Both the position numbers and the translations under genes were made by a program. A stretch of DNA of 20,033 nucleotides from positions 1 through 20,033 of the forward strand of contig JAEOTM010000055.1 in NCBI GenBank assembly GCA_016839815.1, written 5' to 3'. The DNA is from Candidatus Hodarchaeota archaeon. Its GTDB lineage: Archaea > Asgardarchaeota > Heimdallarchaeia > Hodarchaeales > Hodarchaeaceae. Numbering within the stretch: the stretch's first letter is position 1; every line of letters starts with the position of its first letter. Under the pieces are notes generated by a model, which searched no databases, was not told the origin of the DNA, and saw nothing but the letters and a program-made list of their open reading frames with translations. Below, piece by piece: positions 1,431 through 18,188 of this stretch.

Positions 1431-3662
1431 CTAATCAATGAACTTCAAACGAATTTGGTTAAGTAAATCATTACGTTTCTGAAGTAATCTTGTCTTTTTA
1501 TGCTCAAGCCGTTTCACAATTTCTTCATGCTTCGTATCGGAAACCTCATCATTAAGGAATTTCTCATCAGCTTTTTCTAGGGAATCTTCTACTTGAGTTA
1601 ATTCGTCATCTAAAGATAGAAGATCGGGATGATCAACAGGAATTCCTTCGTCATTATAATTGTACTTTGTTGATGTATCTACAGGCTTTTTTTCTCCTTT
1701 TGGTTCGGTTTCCTGTCCAAGAGTAATTGTCTTAGAAAACACCTTAGGAGCTATTATTTCCTTGGATGATGAGGGTTCTTTCTTAGTTTTTTTTCTTTTT
1801 CGTCTTGCTTTGACGTCTTGGTCACTTATATATTCAGTATCACCAATCAAGAGACCCTCATGTTTTCCCTCAGAGCTTGTTAACAAGAAATTCGGCATTT
1901 CACCAGAAAATAATGATTCGACGTGTTCAGTAAAAAGTTTATCAAACCGGTCTTGTGCCCTCATTATTTCTTTACGGGCTTCTTCTAGATCTATTTTCTC
2001 TCCTTCTTGAATACGAATTCCAAATACTTTGACAATCTCTCCAGAAGGAGTCTCTAATACAGATACAAATGGCGTTTGTACAAATGAATAATCTGGAGTA
2101 TCTAAAACGGTAACTAACCCTCCTAGAATTTTCACGTATTCCCCAACACCTTTGATTTCCACAACCTGAACTACTCCTCCTAATACTTGGACGAGGTTTA
2201 TTCCAAGTTTTTCAAATACAAAAATCCCAGGTAATCTTACCAGTGTATAATCTTTTGTCTCAGTTATTGTATATTTAGAAGGTGCAGTGTCAAATACTGA
2301 GGAAAATAACCCTTCTGGACCTTTCCATTTTTTTAAGTCTGAAATGGCTCGTTTAGCATTGTTAAACAAATCAGTTGTTGATTCAAGTCCTGCAACGACC
2401 AATTCATTTTGGGTTAAATCATCGACATTCTTTGATTCAAGATGGAGTTTCATCTGCTCCCATTCTTCAGGTGGAACCCAAATAGTAGTTGTACCATCAA
2501 CTTCTTTTGTAGATATTTCCTGTTCTTCCGACTCTGTTTTTACTTCTGATTTTCCCATTAATACTAGGGTTGTTCCCTTCTCTGTGACTGTTGGAACAGC
2601 GATCGATCCCTTTTTAGCTGAAATAGAGGTTTTTCCTTTGCTAACGATTTTCATATCATCTGTTGGAATCGTGAATACTCGTTCAGGCCGTTCAAAGGAG
2701 GTTTCTTGAATGGTACTAGCCAGTTCATTGATTTTACTTCCAACCTGACTATTAGGATCAACAATCTTTCCTGTTAATGAATTTAAAACAGAATTCAGTC
2801 CATTAGTTCTTTTTCTCTGTGGTGTCAATAAAAGTAAAACTCCAATTATTAATAGGAAGAATGCTAAGTATTGGATGACTTCTTGCCTATTGATAATCCA
2901 CCCTAACCACAAAAATGCTACTAAAATGAGAGAAGATGATAAAAATCCATCACGTACTCGTTCTACTCTACTTTTTAGCGCAAAATTTTGACTAAGAAGA
3001 GTATTTATTGATATATCGTGTCTAGGTGTAGTACCTGGGATAATAATTCCAATAATATTTATCATAAGAGCAATAAGCAGTAGTAATTCTAGTTCAAATG
3101 AAATATTCTCTGGAATTATGAAGATTGATAATCCTTTTAGAATGAAAATTATGAGAGTAGCTAGCCAAAAACCACGGAATACTTCACCAAGGTAATAAAA
3201 ATATCCAAACTGTAATTTCTTGAGATCAAATCTATTCCAAATTATAGCCAATGGAACTAGAAGACAAGCCATTAAATTCTCAAATTCAAAATATGTCAAA
3301 TCGGGAAAAATATCCTCCCAGAATTCAAAAGTGCCTGCTCCTGCGGAAAAGAGATCAATGATTAGATATCCAATGAGAATTTTCATTGCTCTATTTAGAG
3401 GGGACGGAATATCCCTCTCATCGCTTGAAAAATACTTAGAAATGGGAATCACAAAAAATAATACAAGAAGAAGACCAAATAAAGTTGCTCGTATAGCTGA
3501 ATCACCAGTAAATACGACAGAAATAACACACCAGAAGATGAGTATAAGAGTGAAAAGATAATCAAGGGGTGTCTTTGGACGAAGAAATTCTTCGGTTTGA
3601 TCGAGTGCAAAGCTCTCTAAAGAGCCATATTTTTGTACTTTCTGAAGGTTTTCCATAAACAA
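1431..3662 (-). CDS. Uncharacterised polytopic membrane protein (about 8 TM), with a beta-hairpin repeat region and a C-terminal coiled-coil/SHOCT-like end
   Basis: 743-aa ORF. Hydrophobic segments across aa ~35-280, a Val/Gly-rich repeat at aa ~465-555, and FLNDEVSDTKHEEIVKRL near the C-terminus. Start is TTG 3662 or ATG 3656. Confidence 0.75.
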   Translation of the reverse strand: MFMENLQKVQKYGSLESFALDQTEEFLRPKTPLDYLFTLILIFWCVISVVFTGDSAIRATLFGLLLVLFFVIPISKYFSSDERDIPSPLNRAMKILIGYLIIDLFSAGAGTFEFWEDIFPDLTYFEFENLMACLLVPLAIIWNRFDLKKLQFGYFYYLGEVFRGFWLATLIIFILKGLSIFIIPENISFELELLLLIALMINIIGIIIPGTTPRHDISINTLLSQNFALKSRVERVRDGFLSSSLILVAFLWLGWIINRQEVIQYLAFFLLIIGVLLLLTPQRKRTNGLNSVLNSLTGKIVDPNSQVGSKINELASTIQETSFERPERVFTIPTDDMKIVSKGKTSISAKKGSIAVPTVTEKGTTLVLMGKSEVKTESEEQEISTKEVDGTTTIWVPPEEWEQMKLHLESKNVDDLTQNELVVAGLESTTDLFNNAKRAISDLKKWKGPEGLFSSVFDTAPSKYTITETKDYTLVRLPGIFVFEKLGINLVQVLGGVVQVVEIKGVGEYVKILGGLVTVLDTPDYSFVQTPFVSVLETPSGEIVKVFGIRIQEGEKIDLEEARKEIMRAQDRFDKLFTEHVESLFSGEMPNFLLTSSEGKHEGLLIGDTEYISDQDVKARRKRKKTKKEPSSSKEIIAPKVFSKTITLGQETEPKGEKKPVDTSTKYNYNDEGIPVDHPDLLSLDDELTQVEDSLEKADEKFLNDEVSDTKHEEIVKRLEHKKTRLLQKRNDLLNQIRLKFID
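2001..2272 (-). repeat. Protein-level tandem repeat, about 5 units of 16-19 aa
   Basis: DYTLVRLPGIFVFEK / LGINLVQVLGGVVQVVEIK / GVGEYVKILGGLVTVLDTP / DYSFVQTPFVSVLETP / SGEIVKVFGIRIQEG. Confidence 0.65.
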
Positions 3663-3905: not shown

Positions 3906-6900
3906 TTATTCAGTCACTTTCGAATCTTGACAATAAACACACCCATCTCCTTCAACTTCTGCAATAGTAATGATTGTACCACACTGACTACATACCAGTT
4001 CATCTTCGGAGAGGGAATCAACTTGCGAATATGACGACTCATCTTTCATAGTACGACCATTAGAATACAGATCAGATTTCTCTAATTCCTCAATTTCTTC
4101 AGTTGATACAAGAGTTGTTTTCTGACCAATTGGTTGTGTTTTTGGAGTCTTAAAAGGATCTGGTTTCTTTATATTATGATCGATTTTTTGAAATTCTTGG
4201 GATTTAACTTCTTTTTCATTTTTTTTCCTGTGAGCTTTTTTTCTTGATTTTTGCTTTTTTGGGAAATTAAAAATAGTATCAAGCGATTGGGTTTTCTGTT
4301 TGTATTTCTTCTTCTTTGATTTTTGAAAATTTGTCTTTGTTATTAAATGAACAGGTCTAGGAGCTTTTATCCGATTTTCTGGCTTCGGAGGATCTGTATT
4401 TGATTCGGAAACCATATCTATTTTAGTCTCCAATTCTTTTACTCTTTCTGCATCCTCAATTTCTTGGATATTGAGTGTGGGTTGAGATTCCGATTTGATC
4501 TGTTGATTTTTCATTGGAAACTGAATCATTCGATCGAAAATCCTTCCTGAATCGTAAATATCGTTCAAGTACTGCTTTGTATCGATCAATTGCTTAATAT
4601 CTTCAATGGAGGTTAATTCATTCAGCATAAAGCTTAATGTACAAATTCCATGTTTTATAAAAACAGATTTTACCTTTTCAAAATTAAAATCAAATGCTTG
4701 AGCTGGTATAACATGATTCCCTTTGATATTAATCATCTGGATGCGGATACCCGGATCTATAGAATAGCCAAGATCCTGGAGGATGTAAGCAGCAGTGACT
4801 TGAGGGAGTTTCGATCTATACTCTCTTAATTCTTTATTGATCGCCTTCGGTTTTACATAATAGGAAGGATCTAATTTTCCCTCCAAAACTTCATTTCTTA
4901 TTCTATCTGAGGCTTTGTATGCATTTTGATATATCTGGTCTAGCATAATTGGATTTTCTGGATCAAATTGTTCTAAATAAGCCTTTATAATCTCCTCTTG
5001 AAAATGTTTTTGCAGTTTTGAGAAATCTGCTCTCTTTGATTCTAACCCCGTAATCTCTTCTTCCTCCCATTTATTGTTCTGACTAATATGATTGTAAACG
5101 ATATATTTCTTCTTTCCCATGACAAATTGGAAGTCATAGGGACCATCTTGTTCAAATTGAATTAAGCTCTTACTTGTCTGCTTGATTGAGACTCCATCAT
5201 TCATCCAATAGTTATCATTTATGAATCCAGCCTTGAGGACTTTTTCATTCAAGATTTTATCTATTAAACTTACGCGAAAATCCAATTTTTGATCTAATTC
5301 AGAAGGATTACTCAATGTAACTTTGAAATCTAAAGGGAATTGCTTTGGAACCCACATCCATACTCCATCAGTGTCTAATTCTGTCACCGTGCCAATTGTC
5401 TCTAATTGATTAGCGGCCCAGTGAATTAGATCAGCAGATAATTTGGTGGTGATACCAGCACACGGTGTACTGGCATTTCTCACACCTGCACGCATTCCTA
5501 GTAGTCCATAAATGGAATTTAAAGGTACCTTCATTCCTAACTGAGTACTATCATGGAATTTTTGTTGTCGAAGCATATTTGGAGGAATTGGTTGTTTCGA
5601 TATTGTTTTTTGCTTTATAACTTGCTTCAATCTCTGTGCTTCAAACTTATGTCTGACTCGTGTGTTGAAAAACTCATCCATTATACGTGCAACAAAATTA
5701 AATGCTTTCTGGCATACTCGTGATTGTACAGATATCAATAGTGTGATTTTCTTTGTTCTAACATCAATGCTAAGATATGTGTTCTTGGGGAGGTGAAAGT
5801 CTTCGGGCTGATCTTCAAAAATATCGAAATGATTTCTGTCTAAATGACATCCAAGTTGAGTAGCCTCAACAGTTTGTTCTAACCAGTCCTTAATCCTAGT
5901 ATAGGGGTCAAAAGAGGTTATATTTTTTCCTAAATACGATTTATTCAATGGAATTTTTACAAGACCTGATTTCTTTCTTAACCGATAAGCTTGAGTCTGA
6001 CCTTCTGAAAAAGAAAAGATTTCCTGAATTCGACCTTTAGTTGCTACTTCAGGCTCATATTCTTTACAAGAAGATTGATTCTTTGTTGTACATATTGAAG
6101 GGTCGCATTTTGAGGATCCCTTTATTCTATGTTTACAGGGTCGACGAGCTGTTAGTTTGATTACCCAATCACCTTCAAAAAAGCACGTGTTATCCTTCTC
6201 CCTGTATTCACAGAGTTTACATTTGGATAATGGTACTATCCCTGAAGGTTGAAGTTTATACTGACGAATTTGAGATGGGTACATTGATGTAACATCTACA
6301 TGAACTCCTCTCATCTGGACGGGACCCTTCGATTTAATTAATCCGTCAATTTTCTTGAGTGTATCTTTTACGACGTTATCTACACCCTCAACATGAATGT
6401 TAGAAAGATCCTCAAGAATTTCACGTAGATTATTATTTTTTTCCTCAAAAAGTGATGAAGAAACCCCATTCTGCTTTAAAGCTGAATAAAAGTTTTTATA
6501 CAAAAGTTCAAGATCATCGGTATAAGAAATCGACAAATCACCAAATTTTTCAAGAATTTTCCTATCAAATTGGTTTTTCATTTCCCTTTTTGCGATTTCT
6601 TTACTATTTTTCTTAATAATTTGATCTATAAGTGATTTAATTTCATTTAGAGCTTCTTTGTCAGGTTTAAACTCTGTGTAAATATCACTTCGAAATATTC
6701 CAGAATGTCTCGCTTCAACTAGACCTCCTGTATATGCAAAAGAGTCAATCATAATATTAGGTGAAAACGAGTCAATATGCTTTTGCTCAATCCTTCGCTT
6801 TCCAACTATATTATATTGATGATCTTCAGCATCAATGAGTAAATCATCTAGTGAACCTGCACGACGAGTTAAAAGTTCTGATGATGGAACAGGAAACATC

Positions 6901-8312
6901 TGTCCTAACGAAATAAAGAAGTCCAACACGATTTCTTTCACATAACGATATGTAATATATCCATCACAAGCGGCATATCCCACCGCGTCTACTGGACTTT
7001 CTTCAATCGCAAAAAGGGCTTCTCTTCCGATTGGAATTATTTTTAACTTCTTTTCTACGCTAGGCTTTAGGCCTAAATCCTTTTTCGGTAAATAACTATA
7101 CTTTTCGTTAAATAAAAAGGCGTCGAGATGAATAACTCCCCCACCTGTAACAGAATCAATACTAGCAGGTGAATAATTTTTTTTTAGATCGATTTCTTCA
7201 TTGTCATTGCCATTTGATCTACGTTTGAATTTAATCCGAAAACCAGTTCTTCTTTCAAATGAAATATTATATAGAGAAGAGCGAACTGCTAAAAATGGAA
7301 TATCGAACCTATCACCAAAGAAATCAGCCATTACATCAGGTTGATAATCTTCTATAATCTCATAAAATCGATTCAAAAGCTGTCTTTCAGTCTGGAATAT
7401 TTGCACATCTACTGGAATGCGATCAAGAATTAAAGATGAGGGAATATCTGCATCAGTTTTGCACCAATCAACCCAGGGTTTTGAATGATCCTCATCTTTC
7501 TGTTTTAATACAATATCTATACCTGAAACATCCGTCGTTTCAACAACATCATCGTTAATGATCAGATGATTAATCTCTCCAGTAAACAGAGAGATCATTG
7601 AAATTGCATCACGATTTGGATTTGGTTCTCTAGTTTGATCAAAGACTGTTTCAATATCATAAGCAAGAATACGAAGGTCAGGGGGAGCTTTATTTCGTAA
7701 AATACTTATTTGGTGAATTTCCCCTCCACTAATATCAGCTTGATACCAAGAACCCACCCTGATATTATGATCAATAGCAACTCTATGATTATAAAGAACA
7801 TCAGCCTCTCTCCATTCAATAACACCTCTGATTTGCTCACATTGGGATCTTAAACTAGGAACAGATCTTGGATGATCAACGGTAACTTTAAGAAAATCCT
7901 TAGTTATTAGAAAGGTTAGATCAGCAGCATCACGGCATACTTCTTTAGATACCGTAACTACTCTATTTTCCCCCACCTCTTGAATCCTAGCAATCATTCG
8001 ATTTATTTGATTAGCAGAGAGATCAGGAGCTATTAGTAAATAAAAATAGGGAGCATGTCTTAAAAATGCACTTCGCTTATTATGTTCCTCATCTATAAAA
8101 TATACCCTAACTCCATTGATAGTTTTTTTACTACTGCCCGAATTGAAATTATCGTCTGAATTAAAAGAGGGTTCGTAAGCTTCCTCTGTTCTACTAGTAG
8201 CTTCGTAGTCTAAAATAAAAATTGGCTGATTTATCTGCTGATTATATAGATAGGGCTGGAACCAAGAACGATAACCCTGACTTATTCTGCGATCTTGTCC
8301 TGAACTAGCCAT
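3906..8312 (-). CDS. polB: Family B DNA polymerase, eukaryotic Pol epsilon catalytic-half-like, with 3'-5' exonuclease
   Basis: ExoI LAYDIET (D219/E221), ExoII FFGDRFDIPF, SYLP..LGLK, ExoIII YAACD, YTGGLVEARHSGIFRSDI, motif A HVDVTSMYP, motif B QLGMKVPLNSIYG, motif C ELDTDGVW, FEQDGPY, KKKY, ITGLESKR. These track Pol2/POLE (YVGGHVEALESGVFRSDI, ELDTDGIW, FEVDGPY). Confidence 0.95.
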   Translation of the reverse strand: MASSGQDRRISQGYRSWFQPYLYNQQINQPIFILDYEATSRTEEAYEPSFNSDDNFNSGSSKKTINGVRVYFIDEEHNKRSAFLRHAPYFYLLIAPDLSANQINRMIARIQEVGENRVVTVSKEVCRDAADLTFLITKDFLKVTVDHPRSVPSLRSQCEQIRGVIEWREADVLYNHRVAIDHNIRVGSWYQADISGGEIHQISILRNKAPPDLRILAYDIETVFDQTREPNPNRDAISMISLFTGEINHLIINDDVVETTDVSGIDIVLKQKDEDHSKPWVDWCKTDADIPSSLILDRIPVDVQIFQTERQLLNRFYEIIEDYQPDVMADFFGDRFDIPFLAVRSSLYNISFERRTGFRIKFKRRSNGNDNEEIDLKKNYSPASIDSVTGGGVIHLDAFLFNEKYSYLPKKDLGLKPSVEKKLKIIPIGREALFAIEESPVDAVGYAACDGYITYRYVKEIVLDFFISLGQMFPVPSSELLTRRAGSLDDLLIDAEDHQYNIVGKRRIEQKHIDSFSPNIMIDSFAYTGGLVEARHSGIFRSDIYTEFKPDKEALNEIKSLIDQIIKKNSKEIAKREMKNQFDRKILEKFGDLSISYTDDLELLYKNFYSALKQNGVSSSLFEEKNNNLREILEDLSNIHVEGVDNVVKDTLKKIDGLIKSKGPVQMRGVHVDVTSMYPSQIRQYKLQPSGIVPLSKCKLCEYREKDNTCFFEGDWVIKLTARRPCKHRIKGSSKCDPSICTTKNQSSCKEYEPEVATKGRIQEIFSFSEGQTQAYRLRKKSGLVKIPLNKSYLGKNITSFDPYTRIKDWLEQTVEATQLGCHLDRNHFDIFEDQPEDFHLPKNTYLSIDVRTKKITLLISVQSRVCQKAFNFVARIMDEFFNTRVRHKFEAQRLKQVIKQKTISKQPIPPNMLRQQKFHDSTQLGMKVPLNSIYGLLGMRAGVRNASTPCAGITTKLSADLIHWAANQLETIGTVTELDTDGVWMWVPKQFPLDFKVTLSNPSELDQKLDFRVSLIDKILNEKVLKAGFINDNYWMNDGVSIKQTSKSLIQFEQDGPYDFQFVMGKKKYIVYNHISQNNKWEEEEITGLESKRADFSKLQKHFQEEIIKAYLEQFDPENPIMLDQIYQNAYKASDRIRNEVLEGKLDPSYYVKPKAINKELREYRSKLPQVTAAYILQDLGYSIDPGIRIQMINIKGNHVIPAQAFDFNFEKVKSVFIKHGICTLSFMLNELTSIEDIKQLIDTKQYLNDIYDSGRIFDRMIQFPMKNQQIKSESQPTLNIQEIEDAERVKELETKIDMVSESNTDPPKPENRIKAPRPVHLITKTNFQKSKKKKYKQKTQSLDTIFNFPKKQKSRKKAHRKKNEKEVKSQEFQKIDHNIKKPDPFKTPKTQPIGQKTTLVSTEEIEELEKSDLYSNGRTMKDESSYSQVDSLSEDELVCSQCGTIITIAEVEGDGCVYCQDSKVTE

Positions 8313-9611: not shown

Positions 9612-12113
9612 TTATCGTGTAACATAAGAAAAATCAGTTTTTGCTTTTTCAATACGTGCTTGGACTATGTTTCTTAACGTTTCATGAATTTCCCCTAATA
9701 GTTCATCCGAAAATGAGAATTTATCCTTCAGAAAAATATCAAATTCTTGGACAGAAGTCGACTTTTCACTTTTTATGCATGAAGAAGGTTTTAAATGGAT
9801 CATATTCCGAAAGTAGGTATTTAAATCTAGAGTGGCTTTTTGAAAATTCTGAATTGGGATCTTAATATCAAGATATTCATAAACTTTAACATCGAGTCCT
9901 CCTTCCCCAAGATTTATTCGACCTAATAGTTCGATTTGTATAGATGTGAGAACCGAATTCAGATACATAAACAAAAATTTCGTCAAATCTTGAATATTTG
10001 CCTGAAATTCCTTCCTAGGAGTAATTCCATATAATCGAGCATCAAAATAGTAGTTATGGGAATTATAGAAGAATGGATATCGGTCATTAATCGTCATAAT
10101 GCAGAGAAGGGGGCAATGACTGTAATACTCTGCAGGTAACGAGTACCAGTATTTACGATTTGCACAAGTGGTTCTTAAAGCATAAGGATTTTCCTTTACT
10201 GGTTTCCATTTTTCTCCCCACTTAATATACTCTCTTAAACCTGGTTTAAGATCTGATAATTTCCGTTTCGGAATTATTAGTACTATGAAATTTAAAGTTT
10301 CATTTTTGATATTAAAACTCTTAAGTTCTTTAGGAGACTTTACGAGGTAATTAGGAACCCAAACTTCATTCTCGGACGCAATATCTGAAATAGCTTCGTC
10401 ACTCACAATATGACTTTCCTTATTCGAATGCATCCAGTACTCGGGTTCTATGACAAACGATTTCTCCTCTAATAAAAACCCTTGCTCGTTTAATCCTGCT
10501 AAAATTTCTTTACTTTTAGGTGTTAAGAGTAGATTGGCATTCTCAGGATCTACACTAGATATGAAATATTTATTCGCTTTTCCAGGTTTACCAACATAAA
10601 AAAAGTCATTTGCACCACTTGTGAAACCTCTACGAATAGAAACTAAGTCTTTTAGATATTTAATGTCTCTTAAATCATTTTCTAAAAAATCAAGATAGAA
10701 TTTTGGAGCTTTGGCAAAAATCCCCCACTTAGATTCTAGTAGAAGTTTGCTTTCACTTACAGATACTATCTTATGGTCATTTACAGTTTTGTGTGCTTTC
10801 TGGGATCTGAGGGTTGCAATATGCTTAAGATCATCTTTAGAATTCATCCATATAAATTCTACATGATGAGAAGATGACTTAAGTTCGGAACGTTGCTTGT
10901 TACTCTTGAATCTGAGAGTTATAATAGCCGTATTAACATCAACTGATGGAATTAATTTTTCTAAACGAGTAGATAAGATTAGATCGATATAATAGTGTTG
11001 TAATAAAAAAAGTTGAAAGAATTTCCCGTATTTTACATCCATCCATGAATTGGGAATAATCACTCCTAGACGATCACTAGGCTTTAAAAACTCTGAAATA
11101 AACATTATAAAATAAATATAGAGGCTAGACTGTCCAGAAAGCCGAAAAGATGTGTTTTTTTTCACGAAAGTTGTCACAATATCTGTAGATATGACATTTT
11201 CTCTAATAAGATCTTTTTCCTTCTTTAGGATGAGTTCTTGACGTGTATAAGGAGGATTCATTACTACTGATATTACACCGTTCTTTTCGCTTCGTAACTT
11301 ACTTAAGACTTCTTTGCTCATAAATAGATCTTGATTATATACCTGATAGCCCATTGAATTCGAATTCAAGATGCAAAACACCATAAGTGCACTTTCACAA
11401 ATAAGACAGAGTAAAGAGTCTTTCTCAATCGCTATGACTCTTCTAACATTATGAGTTCCAGAACTAGTCAAATTTTCTAATGTACGGAGCAAGAAAACAC
11501 CAGTACCAGCTGCAGGATCAATAATGACTTCTGTTTCAGATACAACCACTTGGTTGTATATAAAATCAACAACGGAAATTGGAGTAAAAACTTGTCCTAG
11601 AACTTGTTTACGATTTTGGCTAATACACCTATCGTAATAATAAGGGAATTTCATTTGGGGATAGATTATTGTATCACCAGTATTTTGCGTAAGGTACCGT
11701 TTACAAATATTAGAAATATTATGATCTGAGTCAAAAAACTCGATAAAAGCTTGAATAGGAAATATTGATGAATGAAACAGGGGAATATCTGAATTAGCTC
11801 GACAAATTGAATCTAAAATGCTAGATAATGGAATATTTTGTAGGTCTTTTTCAAAAAATTCCTTGGAAGTTTGTCTTTTTGTCCCTATAGTAAGGATGTC
11901 AAACAGTAAAGTAGCCATAACGGTTGAAACCGAGGTGGTTAACCGATCCGTTGAATTTTTATCCTTGGGGAAGAAAACATTCTCGAAATCAAATTCGGAT
12001 TTTGAATCGGATATGAAACTTAATTTTGTTGTTTGAATGATCCTTGAAATTTCAGGTGTAACTTGTTTAATAAATTCAGGAAAGGCATCTTTCTCACCGG
12101 TTCGGATCCTCAT
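9612..12113 (-). CDS. N6-adenine DNA methyltransferase, gamma class (Eco57I/TaqI-like), with fused C-terminal target-recognition region
   Basis: LGQVFTP (motif X), IIDPAAGTGVFL (motif I), VMNPPY (motif IV), LYIYF, IIPNSWMDVKYG, and C-terminal RRGFTSGANDFFY ... ELLGRINLGEGGLDVKVYE of the kind seen in type IIG-like enzymes. Confidence 0.88.
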   Translation of the reverse strand: MRIRTGEKDAFPEFIKQVTPEISRIIQTTKLSFISDSKSEFDFENVFFPKDKNSTDRLTTSVSTVMATLLFDILTIGTKRQTSKEFFEKDLQNIPLSSILDSICRANSDIPLFHSSIFPIQAFIEFFDSDHNISNICKRYLTQNTGDTIIYPQMKFPYYYDRCISQNRKQVLGQVFTPISVVDFIYNQVVVSETEVIIDPAAGTGVFLLRTLENLTSSGTHNVRRVIAIEKDSLLCLICESALMVFCILNSNSMGYQVYNQDLFMSKEVLSKLRSEKNGVISVVMNPPYTRQELILKKEKDLIRENVISTDIVTTFVKKNTSFRLSGQSSLYIYFIMFISEFLKPSDRLGVIIPNSWMDVKYGKFFQLFLLQHYYIDLILSTRLEKLIPSVDVNTAIITLRFKSNKQRSELKSSSHHVEFIWMNSKDDLKHIATLRSQKAHKTVNDHKIVSVSESKLLLESKWGIFAKAPKFYLDFLENDLRDIKYLKDLVSIRRGFTSGANDFFYVGKPGKANKYFISSVDPENANLLLTPKSKEILAGLNEQGFLLEEKSFVIEPEYWMHSNKESHIVSDEAISDIASENEVWVPNYLVKSPKELKSFNIKNETLNFIVLIIPKRKLSDLKPGLREYIKWGEKWKPVKENPYALRTTCANRKYWYSLPAEYYSHCPLLCIMTINDRYPFFYNSHNYYFDARLYGITPRKEFQANIQDLTKFLFMYLNSVLTSIQIELLGRINLGEGGLDVKVYEYLDIKIPIQNFQKATLDLNTYFRNMIHLKPSSCIKSEKSTSVQEFDIFLKDKFSFSDELLGEIHETLRNIVQARIEKAKTDFSYVTR

Positions 12114-12131
12114 TGTTACACCGTTAACTGC

Positions 12132-12839
12132 TTAATTAAAAAAGGATTCAAGGGGATATATTTTTGGAACGACCTGAATGTAATACTCACAGAGAGTGTT
12201 CATAGGGCATATATAGCATTTAGGGGTCGTAGCAATACAAATCATTGCCCCTAAATCCATAATTGCTTGGTTTTTAATCCAAACATTCCCATTCTCGATA
12301 AATTTCTCCGAAAAAATCCATATTTTCTTATCAAATTTCGTATTCCTTTCATCTTTCCAAAAACCGAAGATTCGACTGAAAACCCTTTCGACATTTACAT
12401 CAACAATTGCTGCGCTCCTATCTGTTTTCTCAAAAGCAAAACTAAGAATTGCTCCTGCTGTATACCTACCAATTCCTTTTAATTCTAGTAACTCATCTAG
12501 GGAAGAAGGGAATCTACCTCCCTTTTTACAAACAATCTCTTTCGCAATCTCAAATAGAAATTTACCTCTTCTTGTATATCCAAGGATATCAGTTATCATT
12601 CGTACCTGCTCGAGAGAAGTACTGGCCAGAATCTCTACTGTTGGAAACTTCTTCAGAAATTTCTTGTAGATTGGAATAACGATGTCTACATTGGTTTGTT
12701 GTAACATAATTTCACTTACAAGAATATGGTATGGATCTCTCGTTTTCCTCCATGGTAGGTCACGTCCATGTTGTACAAACCATTCAATGAGAATATTACT
12801 CAAACTATGTAATGTATCTATTTGCGATTCATTAATCAA
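12132..12839 (-). CDS. mutY: HhH-GPD DNA glycosylase with [4Fe-4S] motif, MutY-like catalytic domain only
   Basis: RDLPWR..DPYHILVSEIMLQQT, HhH LKGIGRYTAGAI, VDVNVERV, NQAIMDLGA, C-x6-C-x2-C-x5-C. 235 aa with no MutT-like C-terminal domain. TTG start. Confidence 0.85.
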   Translation of the reverse strand: MINESQIDTLHSLSNILIEWFVQHGRDLPWRKTRDPYHILVSEIMLQQTNVDIVIPIYKKFLKKFPTVEILASTSLEQVRMITDILGYTRRGKFLFEIAKEIVCKKGGRFPSSLDELLELKGIGRYTAGAILSFAFEKTDRSAAIVDVNVERVFSRIFGFWKDERNTKFDKKIWIFSEKFIENGNVWIKNQAIMDLGAMICIATTPKCYICPMNTLCEYYIQVVPKIYPLESFFN

Positions 12840-13103: not shown

Positions 13104-13913
13104 TTGAAAACATTGAGTGAAAAGGATGAGTCTACAACTAAGAAGCTTGGACGATTTTTTGGGAAGAAAGTTGTTGAGGCAGGTAATGTAATAAATCGAG
13201 AGATGAAACGTGCTGGAAAAATCGCTAGAGATGAAATATCTGATATTGATTTTGGAAATGTGGTAGTTAAACCCTCTCAAAAACCTCATGATGAGTCCTA
13301 TGTCCGGTTTACACGTAGAGAAAGACCAACAAAAACTTATACTCAAGCTCACCGTACAATCCAGTTTTTTTCACGAAACCCTGATGAGAAAGAAATGAAT
13401 CCAGGAATCGACGGACTTGTCAGCTTTTCAATTTTAATGACTCCATTTGCACTTCTTACAGGAATCCTTGTCCTATTCACAAATTTAAATGAGTTTATAG
13501 CGTTATTTTTCCTCTTTCTATATACGCTTTTTATCGCAATCCCTGGTGCATATCTAGGTTTGGATTCAATTATGGCTGGTGCCAGATCAGTAATATTAGG
13601 TGGTGCATCGGTTTTTAGGGGATTTTTAGAGTTCATCAAGCTCATTTTTCAAGGAATAATCGAACTAGCGATTTTACTATTAAATAGTATGTTTGGTTTT
13701 CTTAAAGGGGCATTTGATACTGTAGCAGATTATGTAGTGTTTATTATCGTATACGCCATTTTCGCTGGTGGTATTTTGGCAATTCTTTCAACTTTAAACT
13801 TAGAGCTTGAGACTTTGGTAGTCCTAGGTCTTATGGTCTTGATTCCTGCCTTATTACCTGCAAGTATTGCTCATCGTTACTGGTTGATTTGGCGTTTAGG
13901 AAGAGAAACTTGA
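13104..13913 (+). CDS. Uncharacterised membrane protein: two hydrophobic hairpins separated by a long amphipathic helix
   Basis: 269-aa ORF. Hydrophilic basic N-terminal ~100 aa, then hydrophobic blocks at aa ~104-153 and ~211-256. Start codon uncertain. Confidence 0.75.
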   Translation: MKTLSEKDESTTKKLGRFFGKKVVEAGNVINREMKRAGKIARDEISDIDFGNVVVKPSQKPHDESYVRFTRRERPTKTYTQAHRTIQFFSRNPDEKEMNPGIDGLVSFSILMTPFALLTGILVLFTNLNEFIALFFLFLYTLFIAIPGAYLGLDSIMAGARSVILGGASVFRGFLEFIKLIFQGIIELAILLLNSMFGFLKGAFDTVADYVVFIIVYAIFAGGILAILSTLNLELETLVVLGLMVLIPALLPASIAHRYWLIWRLGRET

Positions 13914-16618: not shown

Positions 16619-16817
16619 TTTCAGTAACTCCACGTGTTTCAAACAGGATATTACTAAGTATCTGAATATCCTTCTTCAAATCACTATAATTTCCGCAAAA
16701 ATAATATTAAATTAATAATGATGTATTATAGGGTCTGTATCAGATAAGGAAGGCACATCCTCTATTTAAAATACTTCACAGAAGATTGTGTCAAAAAGTA
16801 CTAATGGAGAAAGAAAT

Positions 16818-18188
16818 ATGCTAGAATCCATAGTTATAATAGGTATTGTTTCCATTATTTTATATTTCATCATTTATGCGTTGTATAACCAAAATATTAA
16901 AGCAGAGAGTGATTTCGCAAAAGATGTATATTACTATCTCGTTCGACGATATCCAGCTACGAAAATTTTGGATTATGGAGGAATATCCTCTGATCCAATT
17001 ATCGAATCGAAAGATGCAGGGCCATTTGCGTCTCTCGAGGTTAAAGTCATCACCAATAAACAGGAGGGGAAAACAGATCGCGATCTTATTCTCCGAGGAG
17101 TCATCAATAAAGAAAGATTTCGCCATGCAAGTAATGAAAGATTAAATCTATTGGTTTCTCCCAAAATCACTTGGAGTGATCCGTCATCGAGAATTGAGCT
17201 TGGAGATCGGCAGTTTGATCAACGATTTAAAATCAGTGCAGATAATTCAATTTTCGTGCGAAATATACTTCTCGATACCGATGTAGCAGATATGATGAAA
17301 CGGAACTACGACTTAGAAGCATATAGTCTTTATTGGTATCAGGATGGTACAACAGCTATCCAAGTTAGAATGGAATCTATGACATCTAATAGTTTTCTGA
17401 ATGCTTTTAACGTTGCATTGGCAACTGTAGGTTTACTAAATCAAAGAGGTTATTTACTTAAATCTGACAGCAGAGAATCTGAACCCGGAACACAATCTTG
17501 GGCAGCTCTTAGTCCTACTGTGCATAAGACGCAATATACTACCGATCAATATGCCCAGGTTTACACATCTGAAAAATCAATACAAAAATCCAAAGAATTA
17601 CCGAAAATTAAACTTCATCCAGAAAGAGATTTACGCAAATTGAAGGAAAAACAAGCTCAGCAACAATCAACACAGATGTCTTCTCTCACGAAAGAGAAAG
17701 CAGCTTTTATCAAGAAACCAAGTAATACTGAGAAATTAGTCCCGCTATTCACCTCTATTCGTTATCAAGCTAAAGATATCAAATATTTAAAAGATAGTGT
17801 TGAAATTGAGACTTTTTCTTCCCAATTACCTGCTATTCAAGTCTCATTTCCCTCTCCGGAACAGGCCCTTATTGTCGGGAAGACAATTCAGATCCCTAAT
17901 CAACACTTCTCTCTTAGCATAAGCAACTCTTTTGACTCGAGTTCTCCATCTTGGGATAATCCATGGAAAAACATAGAAATTACCGGAACACAACACATTC
18001 ATGATCAAATCAAACAACGTACATCAATAGCTTATCGAATAAAGGAATTAGGAAAAATAAAAGTTGATATACGTGGTACTAAAAACGGAATTGAATACTC
18101 AGTAATTGGACCAAAGACAAAGGAAGCAATCACTACTATGTATTCGTTCTTCCTTGATCTTGTTTGGTTTCTTGAAATGCTGGTGTAA
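16818..18188 (+). CDS. Membrane-anchored protein of unknown function (single N-terminal TM, two alpha/beta domains with a polar linker)
   Basis: ATG 16818 with GGAG upstream, TM IVIIGIVSIILYFIIYALY, IELGDRQFDQRFKISAD motif, Q/S/T/K-rich middle region. Confidence 0.75.
   Translation: MLESIVIIGIVSIILYFIIYALYNQNIKAESDFAKDVYYYLVRRYPATKILDYGGISSDPIIESKDAGPFASLEVKVITNKQEGKTDRDLILRGVINKERFRHASNERLNLLVSPKITWSDPSSRIELGDRQFDQRFKISADNSIFVRNILLDTDVADMMKRNYDLEAYSLYWYQDGTTAIQVRMESMTSNSFLNAFNVALATVGLLNQRGYLLKSDSRESEPGTQSWAALSPTVHKTQYTTDQYAQVYTSEKSIQKSKELPKIKLHPERDLRKLKEKQAQQQSTQMSSLTKEKAAFIKKPSNTEKLVPLFTSIRYQAKDIKYLKDSVEIETFSSQLPAIQVSFPSPEQALIVGKTIQIPNQHFSLSISNSFDSSSPSWDNPWKNIEITGTQHIHDQIKQRTSIAYRIKELGKIKVDIRGTKNGIEYSVIGPKTKEAITTMYSFFLDLVWFLEMLV

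Follow-up and report, generated by a model that had tools for sequence, protein, structure and literature searches.

The subject of this analysis is a gene for a family-B DNA polymerase (PolB) from a Candidatus Hodarchaeota archaeon, whose product carries the complete set of cysteines that holds the iron-sulfur cluster in the catalytic core of eukaryotic DNA polymerase epsilon (Pol epsilon), a site known as CysX. The gene lies on the minus strand at positions 3906–8312 of a 20,033-nucleotide stretch of DNA (contig JAEOTM010000055.1 of assembly GCA_016839815.1; hereafter the window, with a G+C content of 34.8%) and is a stop-free open reading frame (ORF) of 1468 codons. The CysX ligand set proves to be universal in the archaeal sister group of Pol epsilon and absent from the next-nearest polymerases, and we conclude that the site probably predates the last ancestor common to all eukaryotes (LECA). 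The likely function of these cysteines is to bind a [4Fe-4S] cluster that acts as a ‘staple’ at the base of an inserted domain, to which we assign a probability of about 70%; we infer the identity of the metal, the clustering of the four thiols in three dimensions and the functional role by analogy with the eukaryotic enzymes.

Three of the cysteines directly follow polymerase motif A in the arrangement C698-x2-C701-x8-C710 (6183–6221, minus strand), and the residue at the fourth ligand position, C867 in the peptide SRVCQKAFNF (5712–5714, minus strand), lies five residues ahead of the fingers helix. Their codons occupy positions 6219–6221 (C698), 6210–6212 (C701), 6183–6185 (C710) and 5712–5714 (C867). 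A preliminary, sequence-only reading of this DNA had reported all four CysX ligands as conserved, and the peptide strings and residues it quoted are confirmed in the translation; the interval it gave, 5712–6221, has the C867 codon at one end and the C698 codon at the other. When the protein is compared with PDB sequences by phmmer, residues 670–717 align with the stretch of yeast Pol2 that holds C665, C668 and C677, and SRVCQKAFNF is aligned to AIVCQRENPF, which places C867 opposite yeast C763. The starting point for counting C665, C668 and C677 was M644, the well-known methionine of SMYP in yeast Pol2. The same alignment bears out the earlier claim that the CxxC-x8-C spacing is shared with the yeast protein. 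As judged from this correspondence, C698, C701, C710 and C867 are positional homologues of the yeast CysX ligands C665, C668, C677 and C763, which have been seen on a cubane cluster in structures 6qib and 6h1v (ter Beek 2019, PMC6582351), a numbering on which the earlier reading and that paper agree. That reading was also right about the position of the distal cysteine but not about its surroundings, since the yeast context is IVCQ rather than ICQ (IICQ occurs in some other eukaryotes).

Conservation of the site was assessed in an alignment that extends from motif A to motif B and includes 66 Asgard and 122 eukaryote-type sequences. The latter come from a whole-library HMMER search that returned the Asgard group first and then about 130 long proteins, and four sampled members bear DUF1744, POL2_thumb and zf-DPOE domains (Pfam), from which we conclude that the eukaryotic set represents true Pol epsilon. 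All four CysX columns hold cysteine in 66/66 Asgard sequences and in 120/122 eukaryotic Pol epsilon representatives; position by position, the columns of C698, C701 and C710 are cysteine in 121–122 of the 122 eukaryotic sequences and the column of C867 in every one (122/122). The x2/x8 spacing is kept in 54 of 66 Asgard and 99 of 120 eukaryote sequences, and a spacing of x12–x14 is found in a divergent, LC3-like Asgard branch. An alignment of 110 sequences over residues 664–905 contains 12 invariant columns, four of which are the CysX cysteines, and another cysteine of the same segment, C822, is freely variable. Within these alignments, conservation of the CysX residues is far beyond what chance would produce.

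Judged by its domains and motifs, the Hodarchaeales protein is a family-B DNA polymerase in which both the exonuclease and the polymerase motifs are intact. Pfam detects the exonuclease domain (DNA_pol_B_exo1, PF03104, E = 6.6e-23, residues 168–413) and the polymerase domain (DNA_pol_B, PF00136, E = 4.4e-10). On the minus strand, the Exo I motif YDIETV (residues 218–223) is encoded at 7644–7661, motif A, DVTSMYPS with the Pol-epsilon-type methionine (residues 673–680), at 6273–6296, the first fingers helix (residues 873–904; H724–755 in the numbering of the full structural model, as assigned by DSSP) at 5601–5696, motif B, KVPLNSIYG (residues 928–936), at 5505–5531, and motif C, ELDTDG (residues 978–983, in the context TELDTDGVW at 977–985), at 5364–5381. 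The D, V, M, Y and P of motif A are invariant in the 110-sequence alignment (A2), and the K, L, N, S, Y and G of motif B are invariant in a second alignment (A1) of 102 sequences. The glutamate of motif C is typical of the epsilon-N-like clade, for which the ExDTDG form is a synapomorphy (Kazlauskas 2020, PMC7544198).

The relationship to Pol epsilon is apparent in both sequence and predicted fold. The best matches among PDB sequences are Pol epsilon catalytic subunits (phmmer E = 2e-60), and archaeal PolBs follow at about 1e-15. An AlphaFold model of the full core (residues 150–1260, built from the 102-sequence alignment) has a mean predicted local distance difference test score (pLDDT) of 87.8 and a predicted template modelling score of 0.85, with pLDDT values of 90–96 around the motif. 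The first 36 Foldseek matches to this model in the PDB are all Pol epsilon cores. Superposition by VIA-align on such cores, including the cluster-bearing 6qib and 6h1v, gives a Z score of about 26 over some 850 residues, with a root-mean-square deviation (rmsd) of about 4 Å and 27% identity; the corresponding values for archaeal (Thermococcales) PolBs are a Z score of 21.6 over about 625 residues. Both this model and a separate model of residues 664–905 (pLDDT 80.9) place C698 in a short helix (695–699), begin a 13-residue strand (711–723) right after C710, and end a second 13-residue strand (855–867) with C867 as its last residue, after which the fingers helix (873–904) begins. In yeast Pol2, residues 664–668 form a short helix with C665 and C668 (PMC6582351), and the secondary-structure topology predicted around CysX in the archaeal protein matches that of yeast.

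The polymerase itself belongs to a described group. Its nearest relatives in public collections carry the names Hodarchaeales, Hodarchaeota or Heimdallarchaeota, and the best match in a scan that took a single genome from each prokaryotic species is, at 84% identity, the polymerase of Heimdallarchaeota B3. Kazlauskas et al. 2020 (PMC7544198) defined group B10 on the genomes of Heimdallarchaeota B3 and LC3 and placed it beside the active, N-terminal half of Pol epsilon as its sister; given its close match in one of these defining genomes, the Hodarchaeales protein is therefore a B10 member. The B10 enzyme has elsewhere been named PolB1 (PMC12680538). In all, that scan recovered 23 loci that hold a full relative, every one in a Heimdall- or Hod-type Asgard assembly, although a few of these assemblies are deposited under other Asgard names. 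A survey of 40 related genomes detected the segment 640–900 in all but one of the 21 from the same family (20/21) and in both from a second family of the order (2/2), and in none of the 17 that represent three further families of the class. This distribution agrees with the published finding that the epsilon-like polymerase occurs only in Hodarchaeales (Eme et al. 2023, PMC10307638).

To place the site in time we rely on two maximum-likelihood trees, one of 62 rows under LG+G4 and one of 39 rows under LG+C20 with posterior mean site frequencies. Outgroup polymerases were taken from the genome-contig scan. In both trees the Asgard and the eukaryote sequences are reciprocally monophyletic (100 each by the Shimodaira–Hasegawa-like approximate likelihood ratio test) and are each other's sisters (99 and 96). 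The next branch (support 94) holds one PolB each from a Chloroflexota, a Deinococcus and a Bathyarchaeia genome, all with an ExDTDG motif, which have neither aligned cysteines nor a long insert. As these next-nearest recovered polymerases lack both features, it follows by parsimony that the cysteines and the insert arose on the stem shared by B10 and Pol epsilon, which is why we regard the CysX site as probably predating the LECA. It should be kept in mind that the stems of both clades are long, at 1.2–3.1 changes per site, and that the tree program warns of long-branch joins. A homologous-protein search for shorter bacterial relatives of the G3 type gave Asgard fragments only. The Bathyarchaeia contig (CAYVGZ010000001.1, our locus L043) encodes an 825-residue PolB with an ELDTDG motif C and a cysteine-free insert of about 40 residues after motif A, and this enzyme could belong to one of the published groups B8 and B9.

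The sequence-only reading had gone further and proposed that both the iron-sulfur cluster and the P (processivity) domain of Pol epsilon predate eukaryotes. What survives of this proposal, on the strength of the trees and of parsimony, is a pre-LECA date for the CysX ligand set, but not its birth in an archaeal ancestor. The sister-clade topology fits vertical descent just as well as it fits a transfer that brought the gene to Hodarchaeales from proto-eukaryotes or a mobile element. If the CysX polymerase entered the ancestor of Hodarchaeales by such a transfer, as has been argued (Forterre, PMC12395588), the site would still be older than the LECA without being archaeal-born, and this alternative thus concerns the origin of the site and not its mechanism. 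The restriction of the gene to a single order within the searched set of relatives (22/23 of its genomes, against 0/17 in the other families of the class), the long stems of both clades and the great divergence of this polymerase from the other PolBs of the same genome are all points in its favour. On the other hand, reciprocally monophyletic sisters are exactly what vertical descent predicts if eukaryotes are the sister group of Hodarchaeales (PMC10307638), and the Asgard enzymes are free of the eukaryote-specific additions (the second module and the CysA/CysB motifs), carry a four-cysteine insert (Cys4) of their own and, in the window, have ordinary chromosomal genes as neighbours. We treat transfer as a possibility deserving of attention, albeit one that we tend to doubt.

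Between the third and fourth CysX cysteines lies an insert of 156 residues (711–866; 5715–6182, minus strand) at the position of the Pol epsilon P-domain. The CysX ligands bracket it, and it sits within the palm, after motif A and ahead of the fingers; an insert occupies the same position in the 122 eukaryotic sequences. From the third to the fourth cysteine, Asgard sequences have a median gap of 155 residues and eukaryotes one of 83, a difference of about 70 residues. Whereas the insert is thus in the same place as the P-domain, its resemblance in fold to the yeast P-domain is weak in our models: the isolated insert matches residues 545–802 of 6qib with a Z score of 3.2 (132 residues, rmsd 4.7) and human 9b8s with a Z score of 3.3, and VIA-align gave nothing above Z 3.5 for it, whether against the Foldseek list or against 48,161 representatives. 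On these scores we call the insert neither a P-domain fold nor a new fold.

The insert contains a second group of four cysteines that is restricted to the Asgard enzymes, C726-x9-C736-x4-C741-x7-C749 (residues 726–749; 6066–6137, minus strand). These four positions are cysteine in 67–68 of 68 aligned Asgard sequences, the motif as a whole is kept in 65 of 66 Asgard homologues, and eukaryotic Pol epsilon has gaps or other residues there. Model confidence is lower in this region (pLDDT 61–83). An Asgard variant, P0061, has lost the inner four cysteines together and kept CysX, and for this reason we argue that CysX and the inner Cys4 are separate sites.

By analogy with the enzymes of yeast and humans, we propose that the CysX cysteines bind one [4Fe-4S] cluster. 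Three ligands would be supplied by the stretch of chain that exits the palm after motif A and one by the stretch that runs back in immediately ahead of the fingers, such that the cluster would staple together both ends of the inserted domain at its base, in keeping with the ‘iron staple’ idea of ter Beek 2019 (PMC6582351). The cluster would then be needed for productive binding of the primer-template and for polymerase activity, and it could render the enzyme redox-sensitive. For the eukaryotic enzymes such a role is backed by mutational data. The yeast substitutions C665S/C668S cause loss of the cluster, cripple the polymerase but not the exonuclease and are lethal (PMC6582351), and mutation of two ligands in the human enzyme abolishes primer-template binding (PMC9581978). 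A supply of clusters is suggested in the Hodarchaeales genome by a gene for an IscU-type scaffold at C148:42626-42994 and one for an Mrp/NBP35-type ATPase at C154:10013-10732, which we count in favour of the [4Fe-4S] assignment.

Several observations weigh against this assignment, or at least against a close equivalence with the yeast site. The insert far exceeds the eukaryotic P-domain in size and resembles it weakly in fold, and the local environment of the cysteines may differ accordingly. The SufB/D core (PF01458), which is present in 14/14 control genomes, was not found in this 89.5%-complete genome. Support from covariation is likewise limited. By mutual information with average product correction, strand 711–723 covaries best with residues 853–867, and the two top antiparallel registers among 162 are the expected ones, but the mean is only about 2 standard deviations above background and a parallel register scores nearly as high, such that the signal is weak and compatible with either orientation, and the split of the sequences into two clades confounds it. 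Finally, zinc can occupy the yeast CysX site, as seen in structure 4m8o, where it was regarded as an opportunistic binder (PMC6582351), and for this reason sequence alone cannot tell a zinc site from an iron-sulfur cluster.

This last point leads to a competing explanation, namely that the CysX four form a structural site for zinc or another mononuclear metal, which would staple the base of the insert without any redox chemistry. The precedent of 4m8o and the failure to find SufB/D in this incomplete assembly speak for it, as do two further Cys4 motifs in the same protein that resemble zinc sites. However, the homologous yeast site binds a [4Fe-4S] cluster according to both its iron-edge anomalous signal and the loss of iron in mutants (PMC6582351), the human enzyme made in E. 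coli binds one at the homologous site (PMC9581978), the combination of CxxC-x8-C with one distant cysteine is unlike the usual zinc-knuckle pair, and the IscU-type and Mrp/NBP35-type genes are present. On balance we consider a zinc site unlikely, although it should not be dismissed. Considerably less probable, in our estimation, is an arrangement in which the eight conserved cysteines bind metal in mixed sets, with CysX residues sharing a centre with the inner four. Eight invariant cysteines do fall within 170 residues, and the pLDDT over the inner four is only 61–83, but eukaryotes have the outer four alone, P0061 lost the inner four as a block with the outer four retained, and the inner four lie within 24 residues, as is typical of a compact module. 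That the cysteines have been conserved for a reason unrelated to metal, such as disulfides or packing, is scarcely credible for a cytoplasmic protein whose four cysteines sit precisely where proven cluster ligands do and are invariant in two domains of life.

Taking the [4Fe-4S] staple as the preferred explanation for CysX, one can ask what the ancestral domain looked like. We can envisage that the insert, already on the stem leading to Hodarchaeales and eukaryotes and thus before the LECA, held two metal centres (one at CysX and one, perhaps a second cluster, at the inner Cys4), that eukaryotes lost one of them and that the archaeal enzyme is a redox-gated replicase. This scenario is quite unlikely to be correct in full. 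If it were true, the single-module archaeal enzyme would provide a simple model for understanding why replicative polymerases carry iron-sulfur clusters.

Comparison with known systems helps to define what is new. Earlier papers have already reported this polymerase, its relationship to Pol epsilon and its confinement to Hodarchaeales (PMC7544198, PMC12680538, PMC10307638). Like the described archaeal B10 PolBs, the protein has the ELDTDG form of motif C, carries one metal motif at its C terminus and falls in their length class, and there is no difference at the family level; the advance made here is a detail, the universality of CysX in this archaeal sister group, and not a new system. With the Pol epsilon core (yeast Pol2 1–1187 in 6qib and 6h1v, and human POLE), which is its best match in both sequence and fold, it has in common a motif A of the SMYP type with its methionine (in most eukaryotes this motif reads AMYP), the ELDTDG motif C, the CxxC-x8-C followed by a distal VCQ, and, at the corresponding place, an insert that separates motif A from the fingers. 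The archaeal protein lacks the second, inactive polymerase module of the eukaryotic enzyme as well as DUF1744 and the CysA/CysB domain, and at 1468 residues it is considerably shorter than eukaryotic Pol epsilon (about 2200). Consistent with this difference, Pfam matched neither DUF1744 nor zf-DPOE in the 1468-residue protein, which thus does not have the architecture of a full-length Pol2/POLE. Binding of a cluster has been proven for the eukaryotic enzymes only, and for the archaeal one we show homologous sequence, strict conservation, a sister position in the trees and a similar overall fold.

Two other groups of polymerases invite comparison. CysB of eukaryotic Pol delta and zeta likewise is a four-cysteine [4Fe-4S] site in a replicative family-B polymerase, but it resides in the C-terminal domain that binds the B-subunit rather than in the catalytic core, and it is not homologous to CysX. 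The ExDTDG PolBs (bacterial G3-type enzymes and one of Bathyarchaeia) share the glutamate of motif C but are without the CysX cysteines and without the long insert. Motifs A and B lie 63–102 residues apart in these enzymes, compared with some 185 residues in eukaryotes and some 261 in Asgard archaea. According to PMC7544198, Pol epsilon orthologues have the P-domain and CysX whereas other PolBs do not, and CysX has been called confined to Pol epsilon in three papers (PMC9581978, PMC7544198, PMC6582351). Among the papers searched, none was found to describe CysX in archaeal enzymes. The presence of the site in a compact, single-module prokaryotic enzyme offers a means to examine the debated role of the cluster, for which structure, DNA binding and redox switching are candidates.

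At its C terminus the protein carries another metal-binding candidate. A basic, low-complexity tail of about 200 residues precedes a single CxxC-x13-CxxC motif (C1441, C1444, C1458 and C1461; 3930–3992, minus strand), which is a putative zinc ribbon and is cysteine at all four positions in the 53 homologues that reach that far. The C-terminal metal motif of B10 enzymes has been described previously (PMC7544198, PMC12680538), and the zinc-finger C-terminal domain of the B10 enzyme did not bind DP1 in a yeast two-hybrid assay (PMC12680538). Several orthologues are much longer, at 1890–2020 residues, and contain LAGLIDADG/intein domains (PF14528, PF14890), from which we conclude that inteins have invaded this polymerase in some Hodarchaeales. 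Inteins were noted in our orthologues P0005, P0014, P0016, P0042, P0044 and P0069 and in genomes G003, G007, G018, G020 and G021, and the copy in the window is without one.

The genome from which the window derives is an assembly of 4.24 Mb in 206 contigs. It also encodes PolD (DP2 and DP1) and two further PolBs (frames of 873 and 852 residues), for which the coordinates by contig are C150:5016-5807, C30:27717-28334, C20:30976-33594 and C6:5453-6529, and the epsilon-like enzyme is accordingly one of four candidate replicative or repair polymerases in this genome. Elsewhere in the window, three ORFs have no Pfam match at E ≤0.001 (1431–3662, minus strand, 743 residues; 13104–13913, plus strand, 269 residues; 16788–18188, plus strand, 466 residues). 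The interval 9612–12839 (minus strand) holds two genes of the same strand, of which the one for an N6-adenine DNA methyltransferase of 833 residues with an Eco57I-like domain lies directly downstream of the one for an HhH-GPD base-excision glycosylase of 235 residues.

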